Assembly (NCBI GenBank): GCA_947168565.1
Contig: CAMVMM010000004.1
Location: forward strand, 5,867 to 69,866
Source of the DNA: an uncultured Clostridia bacterium
Lineage (GTDB): Bacteria; Bacillota; Clostridia; Christensenellales; CAG-138
Direction of reading: 5' to 3'
Length of the DNA stretch: 64,000 nt
Shown here piece by piece: positions 34,242-63,018 of this stretch. The notes beneath the pieces are model-generated. The model did no database searches. It was not told the origin of the DNA and saw only the letters and a list, made by a program, of their open reading frames with translations. Made by a program: the position numbers and the translations under genes. Within the stretch, counting starts at the first letter, position 1. Each line of letters opens with the position of its first letter.

Positions 34242-34318
34242 TGGCACACCATATTGGATTCGAACCAATGGCCTTTCGCTTAGGAGGCGAACGCTCTATC
34301 CTACTGAGCTAATGGTGC
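34242..34318 (-). tRNA. tRNA-Arg (anticodon CCT)
   Basis: The reverse complement folds as a cloverleaf: acceptor GCACCAT/ATGGTGT, D-loop AGCTCAGTAGGATAGAGC, anticodon loop CTCCTAA, T-arm GGTTCGAATCC, encoded CCA. Confidence 0.9.
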
Positions 34319-42927: not shown

Positions 42928-44625
42928 TTACGGCATATTCGCTCCGTTTCCGGTGCCGTTTCCCGCACCGTTTCCCGCTCCCTGCGCCGCGGCAAGCGCC
43001 AGCTCAAGCGCCTTATTTTTCATGAGCTGCACCGCCTGATCCTTGCCGTCGAAGATAAGAAGCTGCAATCCCACGTCCGGCGTAATCATACCCGCCGAAA
43101 CGAGGCGGAAAACGGTTTCGTTGTTGTTCAGCACGGAGAAGGCGTTTTCCTTCACTACCTTCACGGTAACGTGAAATTCCGCGGGCAGGCTGTCAAGCGA
43201 ATCCAGCGCGTGCTCAATGGCGGAAAGCCTTGCCACCTTCGCCGCGCTCTCGCCGTAGCCCATCTCGGAGCCGATCGCGGAAAGCGTTTTTTCGCAGCGG
43301 GCGCGGAGCGTGAACTCGCGTTCTATCTCTATCTCCTGGCAAACCGCCTTGCGGAACGCGGAATGGATGCTTCTTGCCGCCATGCGCGAGCGCTTGCTCG
43401 AAGCCTCCTGAAGCGCCGCTATCGCCACGCCGCTCGTAACGCCCGCATGGGTCATGCCGCGCGCAAATTCGTTTGCGCCGGATTCCTCCTTGATGGAGTT
43501 GCGCATCTCCGCGATATAGCTGAGCATATACGCGGGCAGGGGCGCCGTGGCAAACCACGAGATGCCGTTCAGATTATCGCCCTGATGCACCTCCTTGGAC
43601 CAATCCCGCAGATCGGCGGGATCGAAGCCGCTTGCGCCGGTGATAAGCAGCTTGTTGTGGCTTGCAAGCAGCGCGTTTTTCATAACTATCTGATCCAGCT
43701 TATCCGAATTGCGCTGGCTCGTTTCAAACATATCCACGAAGCCGTAGCCAAGGCAGCTTCCCTTGCGCTCATACATTTTGGTGACAACGAAGGGATATTC
43801 GCCGTGCGCAAAATAGCCGTTCGGACGCGCGATTCGGCTGTCCTCAAGCATCATGCCGCCCGCAAGCAGCATCATGTGGACCGCGTATTTCTCCGCTTCG
43901 GCATCGTACACCCTGCGCCAGCACTCTATAAGCAGTATGGTTTTTTCGCAGTCGGCGGTAAGCAGCTGCTCCTCCGGCGTGTCAAACATAAACCCGTCCT
44001 CCCGAAGCTCAGCCGCCTTGTCGGGGTAGTGCTGGATGAACCAGTCGCGCGTGTGGTGGGCGTATTTGAAAACGGCTCTGCCGTCCTGAATATCCGGCGC
44101 GAGGGGGTCGAAAAGCACGCTGCGCGCGTCCACGTGGCGGATGAACGCGCCGCCGATGCCGCCGTTCGCCGTTTCGTCAAAGCCTATCTGCTGCACGCCG
44201 TAGCCGCCCACAAGCAGATCGTGCGTCATCTTCAGATACTCCTCATCGTAGGCGCAGCGCAGATGGTTTTCGTGGATAATATGGGTAAATATCTCCGAAA
44301 GCGCGTCGTACTCCGGCGCGTCGGAGCTGACTATCGCCTCCGGCAGATGATCCGCAAGATCGGCGCGCACGTTCTCTATCGTGCTTTGGAGAACCGGCGT
44401 AACCGGGCGCGGCTCGCCCTTTTCGCCCATGGGCACGTCGTACCAATGCTCCCCGCGATACATACGCTCGCATTTATCCAGCCTTGCACGCTCCTGCGCG
44501 TATGCGGAGTAGAATTCGTTGAAAAGCGCATACAGCGCCTCCACCTCCTCCGCCTTGCCCATGGCCTTTTCGCTCGTTTCCGCTCCGTAAACGGGGCTTA
44601 TGCGCTTATTTGTTTTCTCCATCAT
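42928..44625 (-). CDS. Phage portal protein (candidate)
   Basis: Lies immediately downstream of TerL. At about 565 aa its size is typical of a portal, and it has an N-terminal region with MYRGEHW. The family assignment was not verifiable by eye. Start taken at MMEKTNK with a GAAAGGA RBS. Confidence 0.65.
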   Translation of the reverse strand: MMEKTNKRISPVYGAETSEKAMGKAEEVEALYALFNEFYSAYAQERARLDKCERMYRGEHWYDVPMGEKGEPRPVTPVLQSTIENVRADLADHLPEAIVSSDAPEYDALSEIFTHIIHENHLRCAYDEEYLKMTHDLLVGGYGVQQIGFDETANGGIGGAFIRHVDARSVLFDPLAPDIQDGRAVFKYAHHTRDWFIQHYPDKAAELREDGFMFDTPEEQLLTADCEKTILLIECWRRVYDAEAEKYAVHMMLLAGGMMLEDSRIARPNGYFAHGEYPFVVTKMYERKGSCLGYGFVDMFETSQRNSDKLDQIVMKNALLASHNKLLITGASGFDPADLRDWSKEVHQGDNLNGISWFATAPLPAYMLSYIAEMRNSIKEESGANEFARGMTHAGVTSGVAIAALQEASSKRSRMAARSIHSAFRKAVCQEIEIEREFTLRARCEKTLSAIGSEMGYGESAAKVARLSAIEHALDSLDSLPAEFHVTVKVVKENAFSVLNNNETVFRLVSAGMITPDVGLQLLIFDGKDQAVQLMKNKALELALAAAQGAGNGAGNGTGNGANMP

Positions 44626-44648
44626 GACTATCCTTTCTTTCAAATTAT

Positions 44649-44690
44649 AATTGCTAATTGCTAATTGCTCATTGCTAATTGCCAATTTCT
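44649..44690. repeat. Heptanucleotide tandem repeat (AATTGCT)x6, degenerate at the 3' units
   Basis: AATTGCT AATTGCT AATTGCT CATTGCT AATTGCC AATTTCT. Spans the TerL stop codon and the whole TerL-portal spacer. Confidence 0.85.
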
Positions 44691-46047
44691 AATCCCCGAT
44701 CGAATACCAGCTCGGCCCCGCCTCGGGCAGGCTCAGCGGGTCATACGCCTTTTTCTGAGCTATCACGGGCTCTCGGCCCGCATGGGGGCGGCTCATAAGG
44801 CCGTATCTGAGCGCCTCGGGCGCGTGGTCGTTGCCGTCGGCGGCGTCCTCGCGGTTCAGCCTGTCGAACTCCAGCATGGGGAGCTGGCGAATAAGATTGG
44901 TGCAGTTTTCAAAGCACTGCCACATCGCTCGCTCCCCGCCAAGGCCGTCCGGCTTCGGGGCAAGATATTCGCGCACGCGGTTCCAGCCGGAAATTCGGGA
45001 ATTGTCCGCCGGGGTGAGCGCAAGACCCGAGGAAGCGAAGAGCTCCGCAAGCGTTTCGCCCTCAAAGCCGCCGCTTGAAGCGAGCAGCGCGCCGCGCTTT
45101 TGCCACATATCGGGGGATGCAACGGTGTACGCTATGCTCTCGCCCTCGGAAAGCCTTTTCACCTCCGCCGCAACGAGGTCCGCGCGCATAAGGCGAACGT
45201 ACAGCTCGCGGTAGGTAAACACCCTGCCCTCGCCGTCCACCGCGTGCCACAGCACGCAGCAGGGGTCGTTGTAGCCCCAGTCCATTGAGCGGAAGCGCCG
45301 CCAGCCCGCTGGTATCTCAAACGGCTGCACAACGTGCTTTTCCCTTGAAAATTCGCGGAAATACTGCCCCGCGTGAACGTCCCAGTCGCCGTCCAGATGC
45401 GCCCTTCGCAGCTCCTCCGGCAGCGCCATGAGCTGGCGCACGTAGCCGGGGTCGCCCTTCATAAGCGCGGCGTTGTCGTAGATGCGGGCGGGTATGAAAA
45501 GATAGTCCTCCGCGCGTTCGCCTGCATTATACTGCCTGTCTATAAAAAGGCGTTTCACCCATGCGTGGCCAACGTTTCCCGGGTTGCAGGTGTAATACAT
45601 CCTTGGGGAAAAATCGCCCCTTGTGGTGCGGTTGCAGGTGGTTAGAAAGCGCATCTGCTCCTCGGTGAAATGCGTTGCCTCCTCCATGCCTATAACCGCG
45701 TATTCCTGCCCCTGATACTGGTAGATATCCTGCGCGGTGTCGCAATAGCCCAGCTTTATGCGCGAGCCGTTCGGAAAGCGAAACACGCGCTCGGTGGAAT
45801 TGTAGCTTGCCGCGCCCCAAAGCTCCCTTTGAAGCGGCACTATATGGTTTTCCCTCAGCTCCGGCAGCGTGCGCCGCAGCAGAAGCAGGTTCAGATTCGG
45901 ATAATTCAGCGCGAGCAGCACGAATTTTCTGCGCATCGCCCAGCTTTTGCCGCCGCCGCGCGCGCCTCCGTAGGCGGTGTGCCGCGCTTTTGAAAGAAAA
46001 AACTCCCTTTGCCGCGCATTCGGCACGCCATGCAGAATAAGCTCCAT
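44689..46047 (-). CDS. terL: Phage terminase large subunit
   Basis: Walker A YGGARGGGKS near the N-terminus, an ATPase plus RNaseH-like nuclease architecture, and phage TerL-like sequence throughout. Confidence 0.85.
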   Translation of the reverse strand: MELILHGVPNARQREFFLSKARHTAYGGARGGGKSWAMRRKFVLLALNYPNLNLLLLRRTLPELRENHIVPLQRELWGAASYNSTERVFRFPNGSRIKLGYCDTAQDIYQYQGQEYAVIGMEEATHFTEEQMRFLTTCNRTTRGDFSPRMYYTCNPGNVGHAWVKRLFIDRQYNAGERAEDYLFIPARIYDNAALMKGDPGYVRQLMALPEELRRAHLDGDWDVHAGQYFREFSREKHVVQPFEIPAGWRRFRSMDWGYNDPCCVLWHAVDGEGRVFTYRELYVRLMRADLVAAEVKRLSEGESIAYTVASPDMWQKRGALLASSGGFEGETLAELFASSGLALTPADNSRISGWNRVREYLAPKPDGLGGERAMWQCFENCTNLIRQLPMLEFDRLNREDAADGNDHAPEALRYGLMSRPHAGREPVIAQKKAYDPLSLPEAGPSWYSIGD

Positions 46048-46069: not shown

Positions 46070-46139
46070 TTTCGCTTGCTTTATTGCTTGCTATATTGCT
46101 TGCATTTTTGCTTGCTTTATTGCTTGCATTTTTGCTTGA
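46070..46139. repeat. Phased 11-12 bp repeat, about 6 copies of (W)TTGCTTGC, upstream of terL
   Basis: TTCGCTTGCT TTATTGCTTGCT ATATTGCTTGC ATTTTTGCTTGC TTTATTGCTTGC ATTTTTGCTTGA. Confidence 0.8.
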
Positions 46140-46583: not shown

Positions 46584-46844
46584 ATGGCGGGGGAGAACCC
46601 GATGAATAAAACCGATGCTTCCTGCGTCAAAAAAAAGCGAAGCGGCGCGCAAAGCGAGAAAAGGCTCAGAAAGCTTGCGCTCGATACCATCATTTCCATG
46701 GTGAACGATACGGAACTCAAGCCCTCGGACAGGCTGAGCGCGGTGAAGGCGCTGCTTGATTACATCAAGTCCCAGCCCGAAAAGGCGGAGGACGATGCGC
46801 TCCGCGTTATCTTTGAAAATCTGCCGGAGGGGTACGCGGAGTGA
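46584..46844 (+). CDS. Small basic/helical protein (86 aa), possibly related to the TerS oligomerisation region
   Basis: AAAGGAG RBS 7 nt before the ATG at 46584, and a TG-extended TATAAT at 46547-46552. KPSDRLSAVKALLDY resembles the C-terminal helix region of Terminase_2-type small terminases. This is a weak call. Confidence 0.4.
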   Translation: MAGENPMNKTDASCVKKKRSGAQSEKRLRKLALDTIISMVNDTELKPSDRLSAVKALLDYIKSQPEKAEDDALRVIFENLPEGYAE

Positions 46845-54688: not shown

Positions 54689-54903
54689 ATTCCGCACCTC
54701 CTTTGATACATTTGCCCGAACGGGCTCTCTTTCCTTGCATAAATCATACCACATGAATATGAATTAGTCAATAATTCCGAGTAAGTTTGTCGGATATATT
54801 TTCGATAACCGTTTAATCTGGAAGGAGCAGGGCGCGGAAGGAGTGAAAGAACGATCAAAACACCCTTATGCGGAGAAATAAGATAAATAAATTCTCTTAA
54901 CAG

Positions 54904-54932
54904 TTGACACACGCATGCGAACATGGTATAAT
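54904..54932 (+). promoter_or_regulatory. Consensus sigma-A promoter, TTGACA-17-TGgTATAAT
   Basis: Perfect -35 (54904-54909) and -10 (54927-54932) with a 17-nt spacer and a TG extension. Confidence 0.7.
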
Positions 54933-54938
54933 GGAAAT

Positions 54939-55070
54939 AGATGGGGATGCGTTGGCGCCGCTCTTTCCGTCGGAGTGGGTCTTTTTCGGCTGAAAGCCGG
55001 GGAGCCTTTTAAGCATACGCGCCGCAGCAAAGAGCACCGAACGGGCTTTAAGCCCTGCGGCGCTTTTTAT
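54939..55070 (+). promoter_or_regulatory. Candidate attenuation leader / short terminated RNA preceding the capsid block
   Basis: About 130 nt between the predicted TSS and the U-run. GCGCCGC occurs twice (54955-54961 and 55019-55025), and both copies are complementary to GCGGCGC at 55057-55063. Confidence 0.45.
55019..55070 (+). terminator. Strong intrinsic terminator inside the leader
   Basis: GCGCCGCA ... TGCGGCGC outer stem with an inner GGGC/GCCC hairpin, followed by TTTTTATTAT. Confidence 0.7.
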
Positions 55071-55178
55071 TATGCCGGACGCGATACCGAAATTAATTCC
55101 GCTTTTTTACTGCGGGAGTCGGCGGAGGGAGCAGCGCCGGGCGGAGCCGTCTTAAATAAGGAAAGGAACAGGCTTAGG

Positions 55179-55760
55179 ATGATGAAGAAAAGAAGGAGCA
55201 TCGCTGCGCTGATCGACGGCATTCTGGAAAGAAAGAGCGCGGAAACGGTCGGAATGGGCGAATCGGGCGAAGCAGGCGGTTCCGTCGGATCCGTCGGTTC
55301 CGGCGAAAGCTTTTCGCACGGGCGGGAGCATCTTGCAAGGCTGGGCGAGGCTTTTCTCGCAAGGCTGAGCATCCCGCAGGGGATGAGCGAGGAGGAGGCC
55401 GCGGAGAAGATAATCGAAATGTGGCGCTCCGCCGATGAAGCAGGCCTGACCCCAGCAGAGGGCGGTGGGTCTGATGAAGGTGAGCCGCAGCTCGCTTATG
55501 CGGCCGATGCGGAGGCCGAGGGCCATGGCGGGGAGCTTGAGAACGCGGAGGACGAAGCGGAGCTCGATTCTCCTTACGGGAGAGCCGCTTCCGAGGCAGG
55601 CGGCAGCTCCGCCCGCTCCGCAAAACTGCCCGCGCCGATTCGCGGCGGACTTTTCGAGGCTCCCGCGGCGGATTACGACAGCATGAGCGCGGAGCAGTTC
55701 AGAAGGCTGAAAAAGCAGCTTGAGCGCGCAAGCAGGGACGGCAGGAAGGTGCGCCTGTAA
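55179..55760 (+). CDS. Acidic, disordered protein with a basic C-terminal helix (scaffolding protein candidate)
   Basis: Lies directly upstream of the capsid gene. E/D/G-rich body and C-terminal SAEQFRRLKKQLERASRDGRKVRL. Confidence 0.45.
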   Translation: MMKKRRSIAALIDGILERKSAETVGMGESGEAGGSVGSVGSGESFSHGREHLARLGEAFLARLSIPQGMSEEEAAEKIIEMWRSADEAGLTPAEGGGSDEGEPQLAYAADAEAEGHGGELENAEDEAELDSPYGRAASEAGGSSARSAKLPAPIRGGLFEAPAADYDSMSAEQFRRLKKQLERASRDGRKVRL

Positions 55761-55864
55761 AAGCGCGTGGGGCGCGGAGGGCGCGGCAGCACAGCGCGGC
55801 TTTTCCCGCGCGAAAAACGAAGCACACAATATATTGAGTATATTAAAGAAAGGAAATTCTATTC

Positions 55865-57082
55865 ATGAGCACAGTTTATTCAAAGGTCGGCATGAACACC
55901 ACCGCCAACACTGGGGTGAAATTCCCCTCCAAGTTTTACGACAGGCAGCTTCTTGAAAGCGCCAAAACGCGCCTCGTGTATCAGGAGTTCGGTCAGAAGC
56001 GCTCCATTCCGAGAAACAACGGCAAGTACGTGAACTTCCGCCGCTGGAATCTTTTCGATCCCGCCAGGGCGGTGCGCGGCCTTGTTGAAGGCGTTACCCC
56101 CAACGGCCAGAGCCTTTCGCAGACCGAGGTGGAGGCCGAGGTGAAGCAGTACGGCGCCTACGTTGAGGTGACCGACCTTCTTGATCTTACCGCCTACGAC
56201 GCGGTGATAAACGATTCCGCGGAGCTTCTTGGCGAGCAGCTCGGCACCGTGGTGGAATGGGTCACGCGCGATGCAATAAGCTCCGGAAGCAACGTGCAGT
56301 ATGCGGGCGGCAAGGCCTCCAGAAGGCAGCTTTCCTCGAACGACAAGCTGACCACCGAGGAGATACGAAAGGCGGTGCGCACGCTTAAAAAGAACAAGGC
56401 GCGTCCCTTCAGCGAAAACGGCAGGCAGCCGCATTTCGTGTGCATCTGCTCGCCGGAGGCCACCTTCGATCTGCAGAACGATGAGATGTGGAAAAACGTG
56501 TCCACCTATTCCAATTCCGAGGCCATTTACAGCGGCGAGATCGGCAGGCTGTTCGGCGTGGTGTTCGTTGAAAGCACCGAGGCGAAGGTTTTCTCCCAGA
56601 CCGTGCGCAACTACGTTGACGACGATACCGAAAACAGCAAAGCCTTCGTGCTGAGGGACGAGCCCACGGAGGAGGAGCTTGCGTATCTCTCCGTTCCGGG
56701 AAACAGGCTCTGCATCGGTGAAAACGAGTACACGCTTGCTTCCGAAAACCCCTACGATCCCGAGACCCGCACCGTGTACCTTTCGGACACCGCTTCGCTC
56801 AGCGCGGACGAAGCCGTTTGGAGCGACGATGCGGGCGAGCGCGAGCCGGGCAGCAACCGCGCAAAGGACGTTCACGGCACGCTCGTTTTCGGCAGGGACG
56901 CATACGGCGTTGTGGACGTTGAGGGCAAGGGCGCTGTGCAGCTCATCGTGAAGCCCCACGGCTCCAGCGGCACCGCCGACCCCCTCGATCAGCGCGCGAC
57001 CGTGGGCGCGAAGGTGACCGCGTATACCGCCGCGATCCTGAACGATCTGTGGATAGTGCGCATCGAGCACACCGTGAGCTGA
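55865..57082 (+). CDS. Major capsid protein, N4-gp56 family (HK97 fold)
   Basis: FPSKFYDRQLLESAKTRLVYQEFGQKRSIPRNNGKYVNFRRW and VKQYGAYVEVTDLLDLTAYD closely match my memory of this family. Confidence 0.85.
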   Translation: MSTVYSKVGMNTTANTGVKFPSKFYDRQLLESAKTRLVYQEFGQKRSIPRNNGKYVNFRRWNLFDPARAVRGLVEGVTPNGQSLSQTEVEAEVKQYGAYVEVTDLLDLTAYDAVINDSAELLGEQLGTVVEWVTRDAISSGSNVQYAGGKASRRQLSSNDKLTTEEIRKAVRTLKKNKARPFSENGRQPHFVCICSPEATFDLQNDEMWKNVSTYSNSEAIYSGEIGRLFGVVFVESTEAKVFSQTVRNYVDDDTENSKAFVLRDEPTEEELAYLSVPGNRLCIGENEYTLASENPYDPETRTVYLSDTASLSADEAVWSDDAGEREPGSNRAKDVHGTLVFGRDAYGVVDVEGKGAVQLIVKPHGSSGTADPLDQRATVGAKVTAYTAAILNDLWIVRIEHTVS

Positions 57083-57171
57083 CGGGCGGAAAGCCCGCCG
57101 ATAAGCGCGGATAAAGCAAGGGGGCGGGGGAAAGCCGCCCCCGAACGGAAAAAACAGAAACGGGGGATAAA

Positions 57172-58500
57172 ATGGCAAAAAACTTTTTCACAAGCGGCAG
57201 GATAAGCCCCGGCATGAAAAGAAGGGTAAACGATGACGTGAAGCCCATTCGCCCGCAGTATTCCGAAATGGGCGGCCCGGGCGGCTATACCGCTTCGGGA
57301 GGAGCGCCGACCGGCTCCGGCGGCAATTCCGCAGCAAACGCGGGCGGCGGAGGCTACGCGGGCGGCTTTTTCGGAGCGCAGGGCGGCTCGGGAGGCTACG
57401 CGCAGGCGGGCCATGCGAACTATCACAGCGGCGAGGGCACAAGCGGCGAAGGCAGCGCGGATAATCACGGCGGCAATACGGGCGGCGGCAATACGGGCGG
57501 CGGCAATATGGGCGGCTACGATGCGGGCAGCTTTGAGGATTATTACAGCCGCCTTATCGCGGCGCTGCACAGTTACGGCATAGATATGGCGTTGCCCACG
57601 CTGGACGAGCTGTATTCGCAGCTTTCAGCATTCCTGCGCCCTTCGGTGGATGCGGCGATCGCGGGCAGGCAGAGATACGGCGAAACCGTGATGGCGGAGC
57701 TGGACGCGGACGCATATTCGCGCGGGATGGGCTCATCGAGCTATCTTTCAAGCATGAAGAACCGCGAGTATGACGATATTGCAAACGATATTGCCGCGAT
57801 GGAAACCAATTACAATTCCACCCTTGCGGAATATCTTTACAATGCGTCAAACGAGCTTGCGAGCATTCAGACTCGCTTTGCGGAGATGCGCCGTCAGCAT
57901 GAGCTTGAGATGGAGCGCCAGCTTCAGCAGCAGGCGTATGAAAACGAGCGCTTGAGGCGGCAGCAGGAGTTTGAGGCGGAGCAGGAGCGGCTCAGGCGTG
58001 CCTACGAGATGGAGAGGCTGCGTCAGCAGCAGGAGTTTGAGCGGGCGATGCGCCTTCAGGCGGCAAGCGCCGCTTCCGGCGGCTCGGGCGGCGGTCACGG
58101 CTCCGGCTCGGGCGGCTCGGGCGGCTCCGGCAGCTCCGGCAGCTCCGGCGGCTCCGGCGGCTCCGGCGGCGGAAGCGGAAAGCCCAAGCCGAATAAGCCC
58201 GGCGCAGCGGGCTCGGGCGGCTCCGGCGGCTATACGGATGCCGGCACGGGCGACAGCGCGCATTATTACAATTATTCCGTGTATCTGAATTCGCTCTCCT
58301 CCGCCGATCGCGCAAGCGTGTTCGGCAGCAATTCCTCCTATTGGAGCGCAATACGCGAGGAGCTTATGCGAAATCTTTCGCCCGATCAGTATGAGCGGCT
58401 GCGCAGGCAGTACGATCCGCACTATTCGCAGGGCGGAGGCGGCGGCACAAGCTCCGGCCAGGCTCCGGGAAGACCGTGGAACGTGAACACCACGAACTGA
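57172..58500 (+). CDS. Gly-rich / Q-E-R coiled-coil protein, unknown function
   Basis: GGGGGA RBS. Two long Gly/Ser tracts flank a helical ERLRRQQEFE-repeat segment. Confidence 0.5.
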   Translation: MAKNFFTSGRISPGMKRRVNDDVKPIRPQYSEMGGPGGYTASGGAPTGSGGNSAANAGGGGYAGGFFGAQGGSGGYAQAGHANYHSGEGTSGEGSADNHGGNTGGGNTGGGNMGGYDAGSFEDYYSRLIAALHSYGIDMALPTLDELYSQLSAFLRPSVDAAIAGRQRYGETVMAELDADAYSRGMGSSSYLSSMKNREYDDIANDIAAMETNYNSTLAEYLYNASNELASIQTRFAEMRRQHELEMERQLQQQAYENERLRRQQEFEAEQERLRRAYEMERLRQQQEFERAMRLQAASAASGGSGGGHGSGSGGSGGSGSSGSSGGSGGSGGGSGKPKPNKPGAAGSGGSGGYTDAGTGDSAHYYNYSVYLNSLSSADRASVFGSNSSYWSAIREELMRNLSPDQYERLRRQYDPHYSQGGGGGTSSGQAPGRPWNVNTTN

Positions 58501-58712
58501 AGAAAGCGGATGCGGAGGGCGTAACGCGAGGCGAAAAGGGGCGGCACGGGGCCTGCCGCCCCTAAAACGGAAGGAATGCGCATGGATGAAGGAGCCGGAT
58601 CAAGGCAGGCCTGAGCCGATGGCATAAGCACGTCAATTATACGAAATATATGAGCAGATAAAAGAAATAATCGAATGAAACGAGTGATCGGGAACACAAA
58701 GGAGAAAACGGA

Positions 58713-59468
58713 ATGAAGAGTGCATTGGATTTTATTCGCTTCGCGCTTTCCCACGCCAAATTTGAAAGCATTCCGGTGGGCACAAAGCTGCCGCTGGATA
58801 TAGAGGAGTGCGCCCTGGAGGAATGGGAATACCTTCCCGGAATGAAGGGCGAGCTGGTCACGAAGGAAACGCTTGAAGCGAAGTATGAGAATTTTTATAA
58901 GCTTTGCGGCTGGACGAGGGAGAAATTCGATCATCTGACGGGCAGCTTCGCCCAAAGAAGGGTGCATGCTTGCGACAGCCAGGGGCTGCTGGCTGCATAC
59001 ACCGGCATGGAGGCAACGCCGAATTACTGTTACAGCGCGTGGTGCTCCGATAAGGGCAGGATAGGCGAGGTCAAGCGGCCCTATGCGATAGGCGAAGCGG
59101 TGTTTGTGATGGATAAGGAGGAGCGCATGATGCACACGGGCTTCATCTGCGGGCAGATCGGCGGGGAGCCGCTGGTGGTGGAGGCGCGCGGCGTTGTTTA
59201 CGGCGTGTGCGTCACAAGGCTTTCCGACCGACCGTGGACGCACAGGGGGCTGTGTACCAGAAGGCTCATCTACGATGAAGGCTGCTACGATGAGCAGATC
59301 GTGCTGAGCCTTCAAAAGCCCATGATGCAGGGCGAGGCGGTGAAGCTGCTTCAGCGCGCGCTGAATGCCCTCGGCTATTTCGCGGGGGAGGCGGACGGGA
59401 AATGCGGCGAATTTACCCTTGGCGCAATAAAGGAGTTTTCAAGGGCGCATTTGACGCGGCTGCTGTAA
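58713..59468 (+). CDS. Cell-wall hydrolase candidate: NlpC/P60-like domain plus PG_binding_1 domain
   Basis: AAAGGAG RBS. ACDSQGLL / MHTGFI pattern reminiscent of C40 peptidases. C-terminal GEAVKLLQRALNALGYFAGEADGKCGEFTLGAIKEF peptidoglycan-binding repeat. Confidence 0.6.
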   Translation: MKSALDFIRFALSHAKFESIPVGTKLPLDIEECALEEWEYLPGMKGELVTKETLEAKYENFYKLCGWTREKFDHLTGSFAQRRVHACDSQGLLAAYTGMEATPNYCYSAWCSDKGRIGEVKRPYAIGEAVFVMDKEERMMHTGFICGQIGGEPLVVEARGVVYGVCVTRLSDRPWTHRGLCTRRLIYDEGCYDEQIVLSLQKPMMQGEAVKLLQRALNALGYFAGEADGKCGEFTLGAIKEFSRAHLTRLL

Positions 59469-61059: not shown

Positions 61060-61599
61060 ATGACTTTGAATGATATTATCGTTTCTTCGCTTGCCCAGCT
61101 CGACCGTTCGCACGATATGCAGACGGTGGAGGTATACAGAAGCCGCTTTGCGCAGTTTGCAAACGATGCGCAAAACGATCTTGCCCTCGCCCTTGCGCTC
61201 AAGCGGACCGAAACGCTTGTGCCGGAGGAGGGCGTGCTCGATCTTACGCAGCTTGAAAGAAAGTGCTATCGCGTTGAAAGCGTTTGCCAGCTCGGAAGAA
61301 GGGTGCCCTTCAGCTCGGGCGACACGCCGATGCGTCTTTACGTGCCGTACAACGAGGAAGCGGAGGTGACCTACCGCTTCGCGCCGCAGAAGCTTGAAAC
61401 CGCGTCCGACGTGAGCGAGCTTCCCGCCGCGCTGCATCCGCTGATAGTGAGCTACGTTGTGGGAAGGGAGCGCATGGGGGGCGACGTTTCCACCCAGGGC
61501 GGCGGAAACATCTACCTTTCCATGTATAACGCGGCGAAGGCGAAGCTGCGCGGAGGCTTCGGCGGGGAGGAAAGGTTCACCATCACAAACAGGTATTGA
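61060..61599 (+). CDS. Head-to-tail adaptor/connector candidate
   Basis: GGAGGT RBS. Size (179 aa) and its position before a hub-like gene parallel P22 gp4. The N-terminus MTLNDIIVSSLAQL resembles gp6-like connector starts. Confidence 0.4.
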   Translation: MTLNDIIVSSLAQLDRSHDMQTVEVYRSRFAQFANDAQNDLALALALKRTETLVPEEGVLDLTQLERKCYRVESVCQLGRRVPFSSGDTPMRLYVPYNEEAEVTYRFAPQKLETASDVSELPAALHPLIVSYVVGRERMGGDVSTQGGGNIYLSMYNAAKAKLRGGFGGEERFTITNRY

Positions 61600-61602
61600 A
61601 GC

Positions 61603-63018
61603 ATGAGCATAAAAACGTTTGAGATCCCGTATTTTACCGGAATAAACCAATCCGGCTTTGAAAACACGCTGCCGTCAAGATTTGCGATAGACGCGGTGAA
61701 TATGGATACCGAGGGCGGAAAGCTGCGCGTTGCGGACGGCTTTTATAAATACTCCGCGCTGCCCGTGCCGGACATGGGGCGCATAGAGCTGCTCTGCTGC
61801 CTTAAAACGCCGGAGGGGGACGTGCCGGTAGTTATGAGCGGGGGAAAGCTTTTCGCGCTCAGCGGCGGGAGCTGGACTCATTTTTACACGGCGCAAAGGA
61901 CTTCGTCGAACGTGACCTGCGATTCCGCAATGGTGCGCATAGGCTCAACGGATTATCTTGTGATAGCCGACGGGGAGAATCAGCTCATAAAGTTCGACGG
62001 CGAAAGCGTTTCGCCCTTCGGCTCGGAGGAAAACTGCTCCGATATACCGGTTTCGTATCTCACGATGTATCGCGGCAGGCTCTTTGCGGCGGGCGATCCC
62101 GAAAATCCGGACAGGCTGTATTACTCGGTGCTGCCGGGAAGCGGGCGCACGGTGGAAAACTGGGGCTACGTGGAGGCCTCGCCCGCAGTTGAGGGCGGCC
62201 ATACGGACGTGGGCTCAATCGGCGGCGATCCCATAGTGGCGATAAAGGCGCTTTCCAATCAGCTTTTGATCTTCAAAAGGCACAGCCTGTACCGGCTTAT
62301 CGGCGATCGGCCCTCAAACTACACCATAGAGCATATCGACGCGGATATGCTTGAAACCAAGCATACGGCGATCTCCGTTTACGGGGATATGCTCTATTTC
62401 GTAACGCAGGAGGGGCTGCATTATTACAACGGCGTTACCGTTCGCCCCTGCCCCGATATGCGCTGCATCAAAAGTATCATGGCAAGGGCCGAGCTTGCCA
62501 AATGCCGCTCGGTGATCGCGGGGGGCAGGCTCTATTTCAATTACACGAGCGGAATGGGCGATGAAATGATGGTTTACGACCTTGAGGAGCGCAAGTATAT
62601 GCGCCGAAACGGATTTGAGGTCAGCTTTCTTGCGGTGATGAACGGTAAGCTCATCATGATAAACAGAAATCGCATCCTGTATGAGTTCGGCGCTTCCTCA
62701 AGCTATGACGGCGCGCCCATCGAAGCGTATTGGAAAACGCCCATCTCCGATCTTGGCGACAAGGCGGCTATAAAAAGCCCCCGAATGCTCTATCTGCGCG
62801 GGAGCGGCAGCGCCATAAGGATAGAAGTGGAGCTGGACGGCAGCAAAAGCGGCTATATCGCCCTGCTTCGTCGAAACGGCGAGCTTTCCGTAACGGAAAT
62901 TCCCGTTTTCAACGAGGGAAGGTGCCTTTCGCTCACCTTTTCCAACGTGAACGGCGGGTATTTCGAGCTGGAGGGCGGAGTGGAGCTTGAGATGAGGCTG
63001 CGCCGCAGAACGGAGTGA
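61603..63018 (+). CDS. Tail hub / DNA-stabilisation protein candidate (P22 gp10-like)
   Basis: Translationally coupled to the upstream gene. 471 aa versus 472 aa for P22 gp10. Beta-rich, with local pattern resemblance. Unverified. Confidence 0.4.
   Translation: MSIKTFEIPYFTGINQSGFENTLPSRFAIDAVNMDTEGGKLRVADGFYKYSALPVPDMGRIELLCCLKTPEGDVPVVMSGGKLFALSGGSWTHFYTAQRTSSNVTCDSAMVRIGSTDYLVIADGENQLIKFDGESVSPFGSEENCSDIPVSYLTMYRGRLFAAGDPENPDRLYYSVLPGSGRTVENWGYVEASPAVEGGHTDVGSIGGDPIVAIKALSNQLLIFKRHSLYRLIGDRPSNYTIEHIDADMLETKHTAISVYGDMLYFVTQEGLHYYNGVTVRPCPDMRCIKSIMARAELAKCRSVIAGGRLYFNYTSGMGDEMMVYDLEERKYMRRNGFEVSFLAVMNGKLIMINRNRILYEFGASSSYDGAPIEAYWKTPISDLGDKAAIKSPRMLYLRGSGSAIRIEVELDGSKSGYIALLRRNGELSVTEIPVFNEGRCLSLTFSNVNGGYFELEGGVELEMRLRRRTE

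Follow-up and report, generated by a model that had tools for sequence, protein, structure and literature searches.

In the lambdoid pR'/tR'/Q arrangement, a strong promoter gives rise to a short terminated leader RNA, and the operon of head genes is expressed only by read-through. Antitermination also controls a phage-derived particle cluster in Caulobacter, the gene transfer agent (GTA) governed by GafYZ (PMC11150451). For gut anaerobes, a podovirus-like GTA-like element (FpGTA) was described in Faecalibacterium in 2026, and the same paper reported human faecal virus-like particles in which Christensenellaceae DNA had been packaged in a GTA-like manner, the responsible genes and their control not being identified there (PMC12946183). 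Here we analysed a 64,000-nucleotide stretch of DNA (hereafter, the window) from an uncultured Clostridia bacterium of the order Christensenellales (GenBank assembly GCA_947168565.1, contig CAMVMM010000004.1, positions 5,867 to 69,866), in which a leader of ~130 nt stands before a scaffold-like gene and an N4-gp56-type capsid gene. The element appears to be a terminator-gated leader for phage-derived structural genes; it is known in kind, and it adds an RNA motif that is absent from Rfam. With slightly more than even confidence, we read the leader as a terminator-gated attenuator of the scaffold-capsid operon within a domesticated podovirus-like gene set, read-through of which would need a factor acting in trans.

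Conservation of the leader and its promoter

A search with the leader DNA gave matches in 11 genomes of the genus, and capsid-anchored retrieval from species genomes yielded 80 loci. A recognisable element was present in 28 loci overall. In these 28 Christensenellales loci, a promoter, a 5' hairpin and a terminator precede the orthologous operon of scaffold and N4-gp56-type capsid genes. The distance from promoter to hairpin is kept in all 28, the first paired base of the hairpin lying 5–8 nt 3' of the -10 hexamer. Since the element occupies the same place in 28 loci while the spacers around it have fully diverged, the sequence comparison indicates that it is real and more than a chance arrangement. 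The element is found once per genome, and searches by BLAST, regular expression and hairpin returned no second genomic copy, for example before terL.

The loci were divided into type A (16 loci, 13 of them distinct, the window included) and type B (12 more distant loci). In type B, the homolog of hairpin 1 is the terminator itself: the hairpin opens the transcript and a U-run follows directly on its 3' side. Specifically, the order is 5' arm, GCG, an unpaired UUGACGA bulge, a variable GC-rich inner hairpin, (C)CGC, 3' arm and U-run. These hairpins fold at -29 to -44 kcal/mol, and the ribosome-binding site (RBS) of the scaffold gene is 15–100 nt downstream. In type A, hairpin 1 has a 7–8-nt loop (UUGGCNNN) and no U-run, and it is followed by a variable hairpin and a separate terminator. 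The sequence of hairpin 1 is near-invariant in the 16 loci of this clade, to which the window belongs. A hairpin was present at the position of hairpin 2 in every homolog, with unrelated sequence and length, and the type-A terminators all lie at the equivalent position (-23.6 to -31.7 kcal/mol where computed). The two types can thus be read as an unusual series in evolution, with a hairpin that is the terminator itself at one end and a putative sensor hairpin with a separate terminator at the other.

The signature of the hairpin is GCG-UUGRC...CGC, in which the GCG, UUG-C and CGC columns are invariant (~11 invariant nt in all). We tested its 13-bp outer helix for covariation in a 25-sequence alignment, with slid-partner and 500-shuffle controls. 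Paired bases were found in 83% of the cells versus 46–54% when the partner was slid, compensatory double changes occurred at 6 pairs, and none of the 500 shuffles reached the observed covariation score. This conserved, covarying 5'-terminal hairpin (54940-54971) is the key feature of the leader. It was missing from a preliminary description of the window, which had pointed to homologous leaders as a place to look for covariation and to Rfam as a place to look for a known family; the former gave the covarying arms of hairpin 1, and the latter left the leader unmatched.

A compact strong promoter and terminator, a conserved bulge and loop, and a single copy per genome would also be expected of a stand-alone small RNA gene, the product of which would be a structured 75–130-nt RNA (e.g., a protein sponge or a particle-associated RNA), with capsid expression as a read-through side effect. 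We consider this explanation very unlikely. The element always lies directly before the scaffold gene and in the same orientation; no promoter was predicted between the terminator and the scaffold-like gene in the promoter scan, leaving the operon without another one; the RBS is only ~20 nt 3' of the U-run in some loci; and no small RNA family of Rfam matched.

Relatives with more divergent capsids lack the motif. In one group of them, one or two unrelated terminators stand between a promoter and the scaffold gene; in the other group, there is no leader and the portal gene lies immediately upstream. The absence of the leader where the portal gene adjoins indicates that terminator gating goes with the split gene arrangement. 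A covariance model (R1) was run over 401 genomes of the order and the retrieved loci; beyond its seed set it found only generic AAGCG...CGCUU terminators, and its genome-wide filter lost the window's own copy, so that the run provides no estimate of distribution. A pattern scan of metagenomes gave 57 matches, mostly near-identical copies from one human-gut species together with ~9 chance matches, and added no diversity. In addition, raiA-motif RNA (RF03072) was observed upstream of the capsid-leader promoter in two type-B loci (L029:3080-3284, - strand, 190 bits; L031:1160-1375, - strand, 183 bits).

The promoter of the window scored 12/12 against the consensus and is TG-extended, exactly at the coordinates of the preliminary description. 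In the 2.36-Mb genome, 48 perfect TTGACA-N17-TATAAT sites were found versus ~0.3 expected by chance, 7 of the 48 being TG-extended, and the number rose to 62 when spacers of 16–18 nt were accepted; the sigma-A promoters of this bacterium are unusually consensus-like. As near-consensus promoters are widespread in the genome, the call of the leader promoter is reliable, but the promoter is neither unique nor exceptional.

The promoter had also been described as constitutive, a label that does not sit well with the repeats conserved near its -35 hexamer. In 23 of the 28 homologous promoters, TTGA(C/T) is preceded by (A/G)GAGA, ~15 AT-rich nt, TCTC(T/C) and 5–6 nt; in the window, the proximal half-site TCTCT lies 6 nt 5' of the -35. 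An extra TCTCT-N5-AGAGA palindrome is often present further upstream of the homologous promoters. Because of these conserved AGAGA/TCTCT repeats, the leader promoter is probably not simply constitutive but regulated too, and a DNA-binding regulator may act on the repeats.

In type-B promoters (L026-L035, L057, L061), a near-palindrome, (C)GAAC-N4-GTGC, spans the spacer and the extended -10, where it overlaps TGnTATAAT. The window's clade is without this palindrome, and the window retains only the half CGAACAT. The type-B sequence is one mismatch from GAAC-N4-GTTC, the Gram-positive LexA (Cheo) box, and the resemblance would suggest SOS control in type-B lineages. On the - strand, the divergent iscR promoter (window 54743-54800; TTGACT-17-TATGAT with TG) lies inside a CCGAGT...ACTCGGAATTATTGACTAAT segment that is conserved in the genus and is probably an Rrf2/IscR autoregulatory operator.

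Leader RNA folds and a putative antitermination switch

RNA folding gave -11.8 kcal/mol for hairpin 1 and -26.0 kcal/mol for the whole terminator, in which GCGCCGCAG pairs with CUGCGGCGC as the outer stem and the U-run UUUUUAUUAU (U5AUUAU) follows. A GC-rich stable hairpin and a U-tract are thus both present on the transcribed strand, consistent with an intrinsic terminator. With a loop of more than 8 nt, it escaped a simple terminator scanner that accepts loops of ≤8 nt. The preliminary description had placed this terminator at 55019-55070, and the U-run extends to 55073. The repeats it quoted were found at the same positions in our analysis (GCGCCGC at 54955-54961 and 55019-55025, GCGGCGC at 55057-55063, GCTCTTT at 54960-54966 and AAAGAGC at 55029-55035). 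Of the antiterminator fold that it built on them, the GCUCUUU/AAAGAGC pairing is kept in the window's clade, and the GCGCCGC duplication proved to be limited to the four closest loci.

Every type-A leader has an AAAGAGC-type box in or beside the 5' arm of the terminator. In 8 of the 13 distinct leaders, no other segment pairs better with the 3' arm of hairpin 1 (-9 to -15.5 kcal/mol). The box can alternatively pair with GCGCUUUUU at the 3' end of the terminator. Matching changes on both sides of the GCUCUUU/AAAGAGC pairing were found in L014, L018 and L021, and truncated transcripts of L020 and L025 folded into the antiterminator form. A DNA repeat finder returned the terminator arms (I1) and the complementarity between 54960-54973 and 55022-55035 (I2; 14 nt, 79%). 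For a pseudoknot of the hairpin loop with downstream sequence, inspection by eye gave no consistent partner across lineages.

We propose that the strong sigma-A promoter would start an RNA, the first 32 nt of which would fold as the hairpin with GCG-UUGRC...CGC. By default, hairpin 1 would form first, then the terminator, and an RNA of ~130 nt would be released. Read-through would require a trans-acting factor, most likely a protein, that binds the 5'-terminal arm and UUGRC as these emerge from the polymerase. In type B, such binding would by itself prevent closure of the terminator stem. In type A, the 3' arm of hairpin 1 (GCUCUUUCCGUC) would be set free and could then pair with the AAAGAGC box and block the terminator, so that hairpin 1 would be an anti-antiterminator. 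Note that in this scheme we infer where transcription starts, that termination takes place in vivo, that a factor exists and of what nature it is, and which way the switch works. Type-A hairpin 1 has lost the terminator function, yet no other part of the leader is as well conserved, loop included, which suggests that it is recognised. Inside the operon, no further + strand U-tract terminators were found, suggesting that a leader-specific switch would suffice. With a promoter that is probably regulated too, control would be exerted at two tiers, the promoter and the terminator, as in the Caulobacter GTA cluster (PMC11150451). The factor could be a new RNA-binding antiterminator, or the scaffold protein feeding back on its own leader. 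In phage P22, the scaffold gene is autoregulated post-transcriptionally, and the RNA target is undefined there.

More tentatively, and with our judgement tilting against it, the GCG-UUGRC hairpin may serve as RNA operator for an antitermination switch of a kind not yet described, one that times capsid production by a family-wide podovirus-type GTA of Christensenellales. If the leader does act as an attenuator in the proposed way, it would be the control point of capsid production in a particle system kept by a family of gut and rumen Christensenellales. The leader is also a compact, testable cis-element (promoter repeats, hairpin and terminator), usable for reporters and as bait in pull-downs.

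Several results weigh against a factor-dependent switch. In the window, the GCUCUUU/AAAGAGC pairing is only 7 bp long, and the 3' arm pairs better with another segment. The z-scores of the alternative pairings are modest (mean -1.1), those of the whole-leader fold are weak for the window (-0.7 to -2.4), and the complementarity could be a by-product of two tandem paralogous hairpins. Variation in the type-A hairpins is mostly G·U to A-U, and the double changes are mainly those between type A and type B, in related lineages. Searches for the factor were negative as well. For the Q families (PF06530 and PF03589), no match in the genome passed the cut-off, the best sub-threshold match being an ECF sigma factor; Q proteins are diverse, and an unrecognised Q analogue may be present. 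A LoaP/RfaH-type NusG paralog was rejected as a candidate, the single PF02357 locus of the genome (92% complete) being the housekeeping NusG. As for an Xre-type regulator near the leader, the genome has 30 HTH_3 genes, none of them within 80 kb.

The region 3' of the terminator bears on the fate of the transcript. A G-rich segment there (GUCGGCGGAGGGAGCAGCGCCGGGCGGAGCCGUCU) can pair with the whole hairpin-1 region at -45.9 kcal/mol in the window (z = -5.4 versus shuffles), and this duplex is the closing helix of the full-length 5' untranslated region (UTR) fold. The same pairing was found in L004, L013 and L014 (z = -2.5 to -3.5), the other type-A leaders being without it; it is thus confined to the same four closest loci as the GCGCCGC duplication. 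The pairing leans on G·U pairs, to which a DNA inverted-repeat search is blind, and this argues for a feature at the RNA level, on the + strand. The segment may protect the 5' end or provide an RNase III site in read-through transcripts.

Such protection could be the whole function of the 5' structure, with no switch at all: the hairpin would block 5'-end-dependent decay (RNase J/RNase Y), the terminator would be leaky with fixed and low read-through, and regulation would take place only at the AGAGA/TCTCT repeats of the promoter. Stabiliser hairpins of Bacillus need an extreme 5' position, and the hairpin starts at +1 to +3 in 28/28 loci. For the window's subgroup, a ~30-bp helix encloses the 5' end in the fold of the full-length UTR; the operator-like repeats at the promoter are conserved, and the negative searches for a NusG paralog, Q and an Xre-type factor point in the same direction. 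We nevertheless regard a stabiliser with a leaky terminator as rather unlikely, as it would need the stem only. It leaves unexplained both the invariant GCG-UUGRC loop/bulge across diverged lineages and the presence of a U-run directly after the hairpin in type B and of a separate strong terminator in type A.

Another explanation is processive antitermination, as with lambda N/nut, HK022 put and Q/GafZ, in which the hairpin or the promoter DNA would make RNA polymerase terminator-resistant through the leader and the operon. The conserved hairpin comes right after the promoter, like nut and put sites, and the layout fits pR'-tR'. In addition, the type-B GAAC-N4-GTGC lies between -35 and -10, where Q and GafZ elements are located (PMC11150451). 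However, neither a Q-family gene nor a NusG-paralog gene was found in the genome, the spacer palindrome is absent from the window's clade, and an operon free of further + strand intrinsic terminators has no call for processivity. A resemblance to boxA also fails: the string CGCUCUUU equals the lambda boxA core, but the rrn leaders of the order use CCUUGAAAAC, and the arms of the type-B hairpins differ. We therefore judge processive antitermination quite unlikely and favour, as above, an attenuator acting at the leader terminator. The boxA comparison was based on rrn leaders of three Christensenellales genomes (L160-L165), where the boxA position reads (A/G)CC(C)UUGAAAA(C/A)U and not the enterobacterial UGCUCUUUAACAA; at the site compared, type-A leaders carry CGCUCUUUCC and type-B leaders CGCUUGUUUCU. 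A boxA/NusB-NusE site was accordingly rejected.

The preliminary description had likened the architecture to lambda Q-type control. The succession of promoter, short leader, terminator and structural genes is indeed conserved, and this layout appears pR'-tR'-like; the Q part of the comparison did not hold, with no Q-family gene above the cut-off and host iscR upstream. No conserved -10-like hexamer of the kind that forms a sigma-dependent pause was seen in the initially transcribed region of the 28 aligned loci. That region is the 5' arm of hairpin 1, and the spacer near-palindrome is seen in type B only.

The same description had offered riboswitch-like control as an equal option. Hairpin 1 would then be within an aptamer for a metabolite or ion and the terminator would be the expression platform; alternative terminator and antiterminator pairings are available, and the 5' element is highly conserved. 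The evidence on the other side led us to give this option very little weight. The leader went unmatched in Rfam when the whole window was scanned at the gathering threshold, when the leader alone was scanned at E <= 10, and when seven homologous loci were scanned. The core, GCG-UUGRC...CGC, comprises ~11 invariant nt in a single hairpin without a multi-helix junction, and the type-A loop has only 7–8 nt, which is not what a new riboswitch class would be expected to present. With one copy per genome, found only before the phage-derived scaffold-capsid operon, the element stands in a context where metabolite control is unexpected. A metabolite riboswitch is thus unlikely. Resemblances to fluoride and T-box leaders (GAUGG, GCUGAUGA and UGGN motifs) were rejected as unsupported by Rfam. 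To our knowledge, the GCG-UUGRC loop/bulge motif matches no binding site of the known attenuator proteins. The sole Rfam match in the window at the gathering threshold is a tRNA gene (34245-34318, - strand, 69.7 bits).

The phage-derived gene set and its surroundings

The scaffold-like protein had no Pfam or PHROG match; its GAAAGGA RBS and MKK(R)..S(I/L) N-terminus are conserved among homologs. The next gene encodes the major capsid protein, relatives of which are recorded as 'N4-gp56 family major capsid protein'. On the + strand 3' of the capsid gene are genes for a 442-aa Gly-rich coiled-coil protein and a PG_binding_1 protein, then a convergent EamA transporter gene, and past it those for an SU10-adaptor-like protein and a 471-aa virion protein. 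The TerL and portal genes lie 9–12 kb from the capsid block on the opposite strand, with a MoxR-DUF58-transglutaminase operon and iscRSU in between. Divergently upstream of the leader is host iscR-iscS-iscU (Rrf2, Aminotran_5 and NifU_N). The phage-like genes are thus split into three blocks by host genes (MoxR-DUF58-transglutaminase, iscRSU and EamA), and the neighbours of the whole set are polA/coaE at one end and, at the other, DnaB_2/IstB-type replication genes (dnaB/dnaI-type) and ABC transporter genes. Coordinates of the features are listed in Table 1.

No integrase, repressor module or replication module was seen around the gene set. Of 15 genomes sampled from the same family, 14 had the capsid gene, in one copy and at 55–75% identity; elsewhere in the order it is sporadic, at 31–50% identity. 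The portal gene was found in 16 of 17 genomes of the genus and lies 5–10 kb from the leader on the same contig in four of them, indicating an old origin of the split. Head, neck and packaging genes are present without replication, lysogeny or integration genes, and the set is dispersed and appears to be vertically inherited, as in GTAs. From this gene content, the set resembles a domesticated podovirus remnant of a GTA-like kind more than it does a prophage. The capsid block named in the preliminary description does contain an N4-gp56 capsid gene; it belongs to a dispersed, family-wide phage-derived set and not to an ordinary prophage. Arguably, the leader is of less interest than this setting within a candidate podovirus-type GTA of Christensenellales.

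Other observations were made near these genes. Divergent from terL, an 86-aa protein (window 46584-46844, + strand) has a basic N-terminus and a C-terminal DRLSAVKALLDY motif and is without a DNA-binding domain. The motif resembles the conserved helix of Terminase_2-type small terminases, and GTA small terminases are reported to lack a DNA-binding domain, like the 86-aa protein. Directly 5' of the terL start is a tandem GCAAGCAA(A/U)A(A/U)A array of ~5–6 units (window 46070-46139, - strand sense); no promoter-plus-terminator leader like that of the capsid operon was seen at terL. GC-rich hairpins without a + strand U-tract follow the capsid gene (57083-57143; CGGGCGGAAAGCCCGCCG and GGGGGCGGGGGAAAGCCGCCCCC) and the gene of the 442-aa protein (58538-58564; GGGGCGGCACGGGGCCUGCCGCCCC), and these may be mRNA 3' stabilisers or processing sites, not terminators.

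Table 1. Positions in the window of the leader features and of the phage-derived genes.
Feature	Position	Strand	Details
Operator-like inverted repeat	54872-54897	+	GGAGA 54872-54876, 16 nt, TCTCT 54893-54897
Predicted sigma-A promoter	54904-54932	+	-35 TTGACA 54904-54909, 17-nt spacer, TG 54924-54925, -10 TATAAT 54927-54932
Predicted transcription start	54939-54940	+	from promoter geometry, 7-8 nt 3' of -10
Hairpin 1, conserved, 5'-terminal	54940-54971	+	5' arm GAUGGGGAUGCG 54940-54951, loop UUGGCGC 54952-54958, 3' arm CGCUCUUUCCGUC 54959-54971
Hairpin 2, variable	54977-55007	+	core CGGCUGAAAGCCG; -13.2 kcal/mol
Predicted intrinsic terminator	55019-55073	+	outer stem 55019-55027/55055-55063, inner hairpin GGGCUUUAAGCCC, U-run 55064-55073
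AAAGAGC box, candidate antiterminator partner	55029-55035	+	complementary to GCUCUUU 54960-54966 in the hairpin-1 3' arm
G-rich post-terminator segment	55119-55153 (about)	+	predicted RNA pairing with the whole hairpin-1 region
Ribosome-binding site and start	55160-55181	+	GGAAAGGAA; RBS 55160-55168, ATG 55179; read from sequence
Scaffold-like gene, first under the leader	55179-55760	+	193 aa; putative, from position before the capsid gene and acidic helical composition
Major capsid protein, N4-gp56 family	55865-57082	+	PF13252; phrog_1357 at 1e-67
Capsid block	55179-59468	+	
Adaptor/virion protein block	61060-63018	+	
TerL	44689-46047	-	
Portal, P22/SU10-type	42928-44685	-	

Comparison with described systems

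The lambdoid pR'/tR'/Q arrangement shares with this locus the strong promoter, the short terminated leader RNA and a head-gene operon that would be expressed by read-through. Unlike it, the locus is found in a Firmicute-type anaerobe with iscR as upstream neighbour, outside any intact prophage and without a detected Q-family gene. Its initial transcript is a conserved RNA hairpin, where lambdoid leaders have a sigma-dependent pause site, and the repeats conserved in its DNA are found 5' of the -35 rather than in the spacer between the two hexamers. Lambda N/nut and HK022 put resemble it in having a conserved RNA hairpin right after the promoter of a phage operon. In nut, the boxB hairpin is bound by the arginine-rich N protein; peptides of the N kind are so short and divergent that they escape detection. 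The boxA-core string in the 3' arm adds to the likeness to nut, but the boxA of the order is different and the string is not kept in type-B hairpins. HK022 put has two hairpins, whereas the leader here has one, and the type-B U-run directly follows it.

The Bacillus pyr/PyrR system (also the LicT/SacY RAT and TRAP systems) has three mutually exclusive pairings, namely a 5' hairpin, an antiterminator and a terminator, as may be the case for type-A leaders, and a small 5' hairpin with a conserved loop could likewise be the protein-binding site that decides the outcome. Here, in contrast, distant relatives collapse to one hairpin that is the terminator, and no homologous regulator was found.

The GTA of Caulobacter crescentus would be similar in its two tiers, DNA-binding regulators at the promoter and bypass of an early terminator (PMC11150451). 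It differs in that the Caulobacter terminator comes after the first gene and is made up of 150-bp repeats, and in that GafZ binds DNA between the -35 and the -10. Its host is an alphaproteobacterium and its particle is of siphovirus type; a sequence relationship is not expected.

FpGTA differs in that its promoters and terminators are unmentioned in the paper describing it (PMC12946183); the likeness between it and the Christensenellales set is one of gene content. Both are found in Clostridia gut anaerobes, with a small TerS-like protein without a DNA-binding domain, TerL, portal, scaffold, capsid and short-tail genes, and both are near-ubiquitous in their lineage and spread over more than one locus. 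The locus described here thus offers a candidate gene set for the GTA-like packaging of Christensenellaceae DNA.

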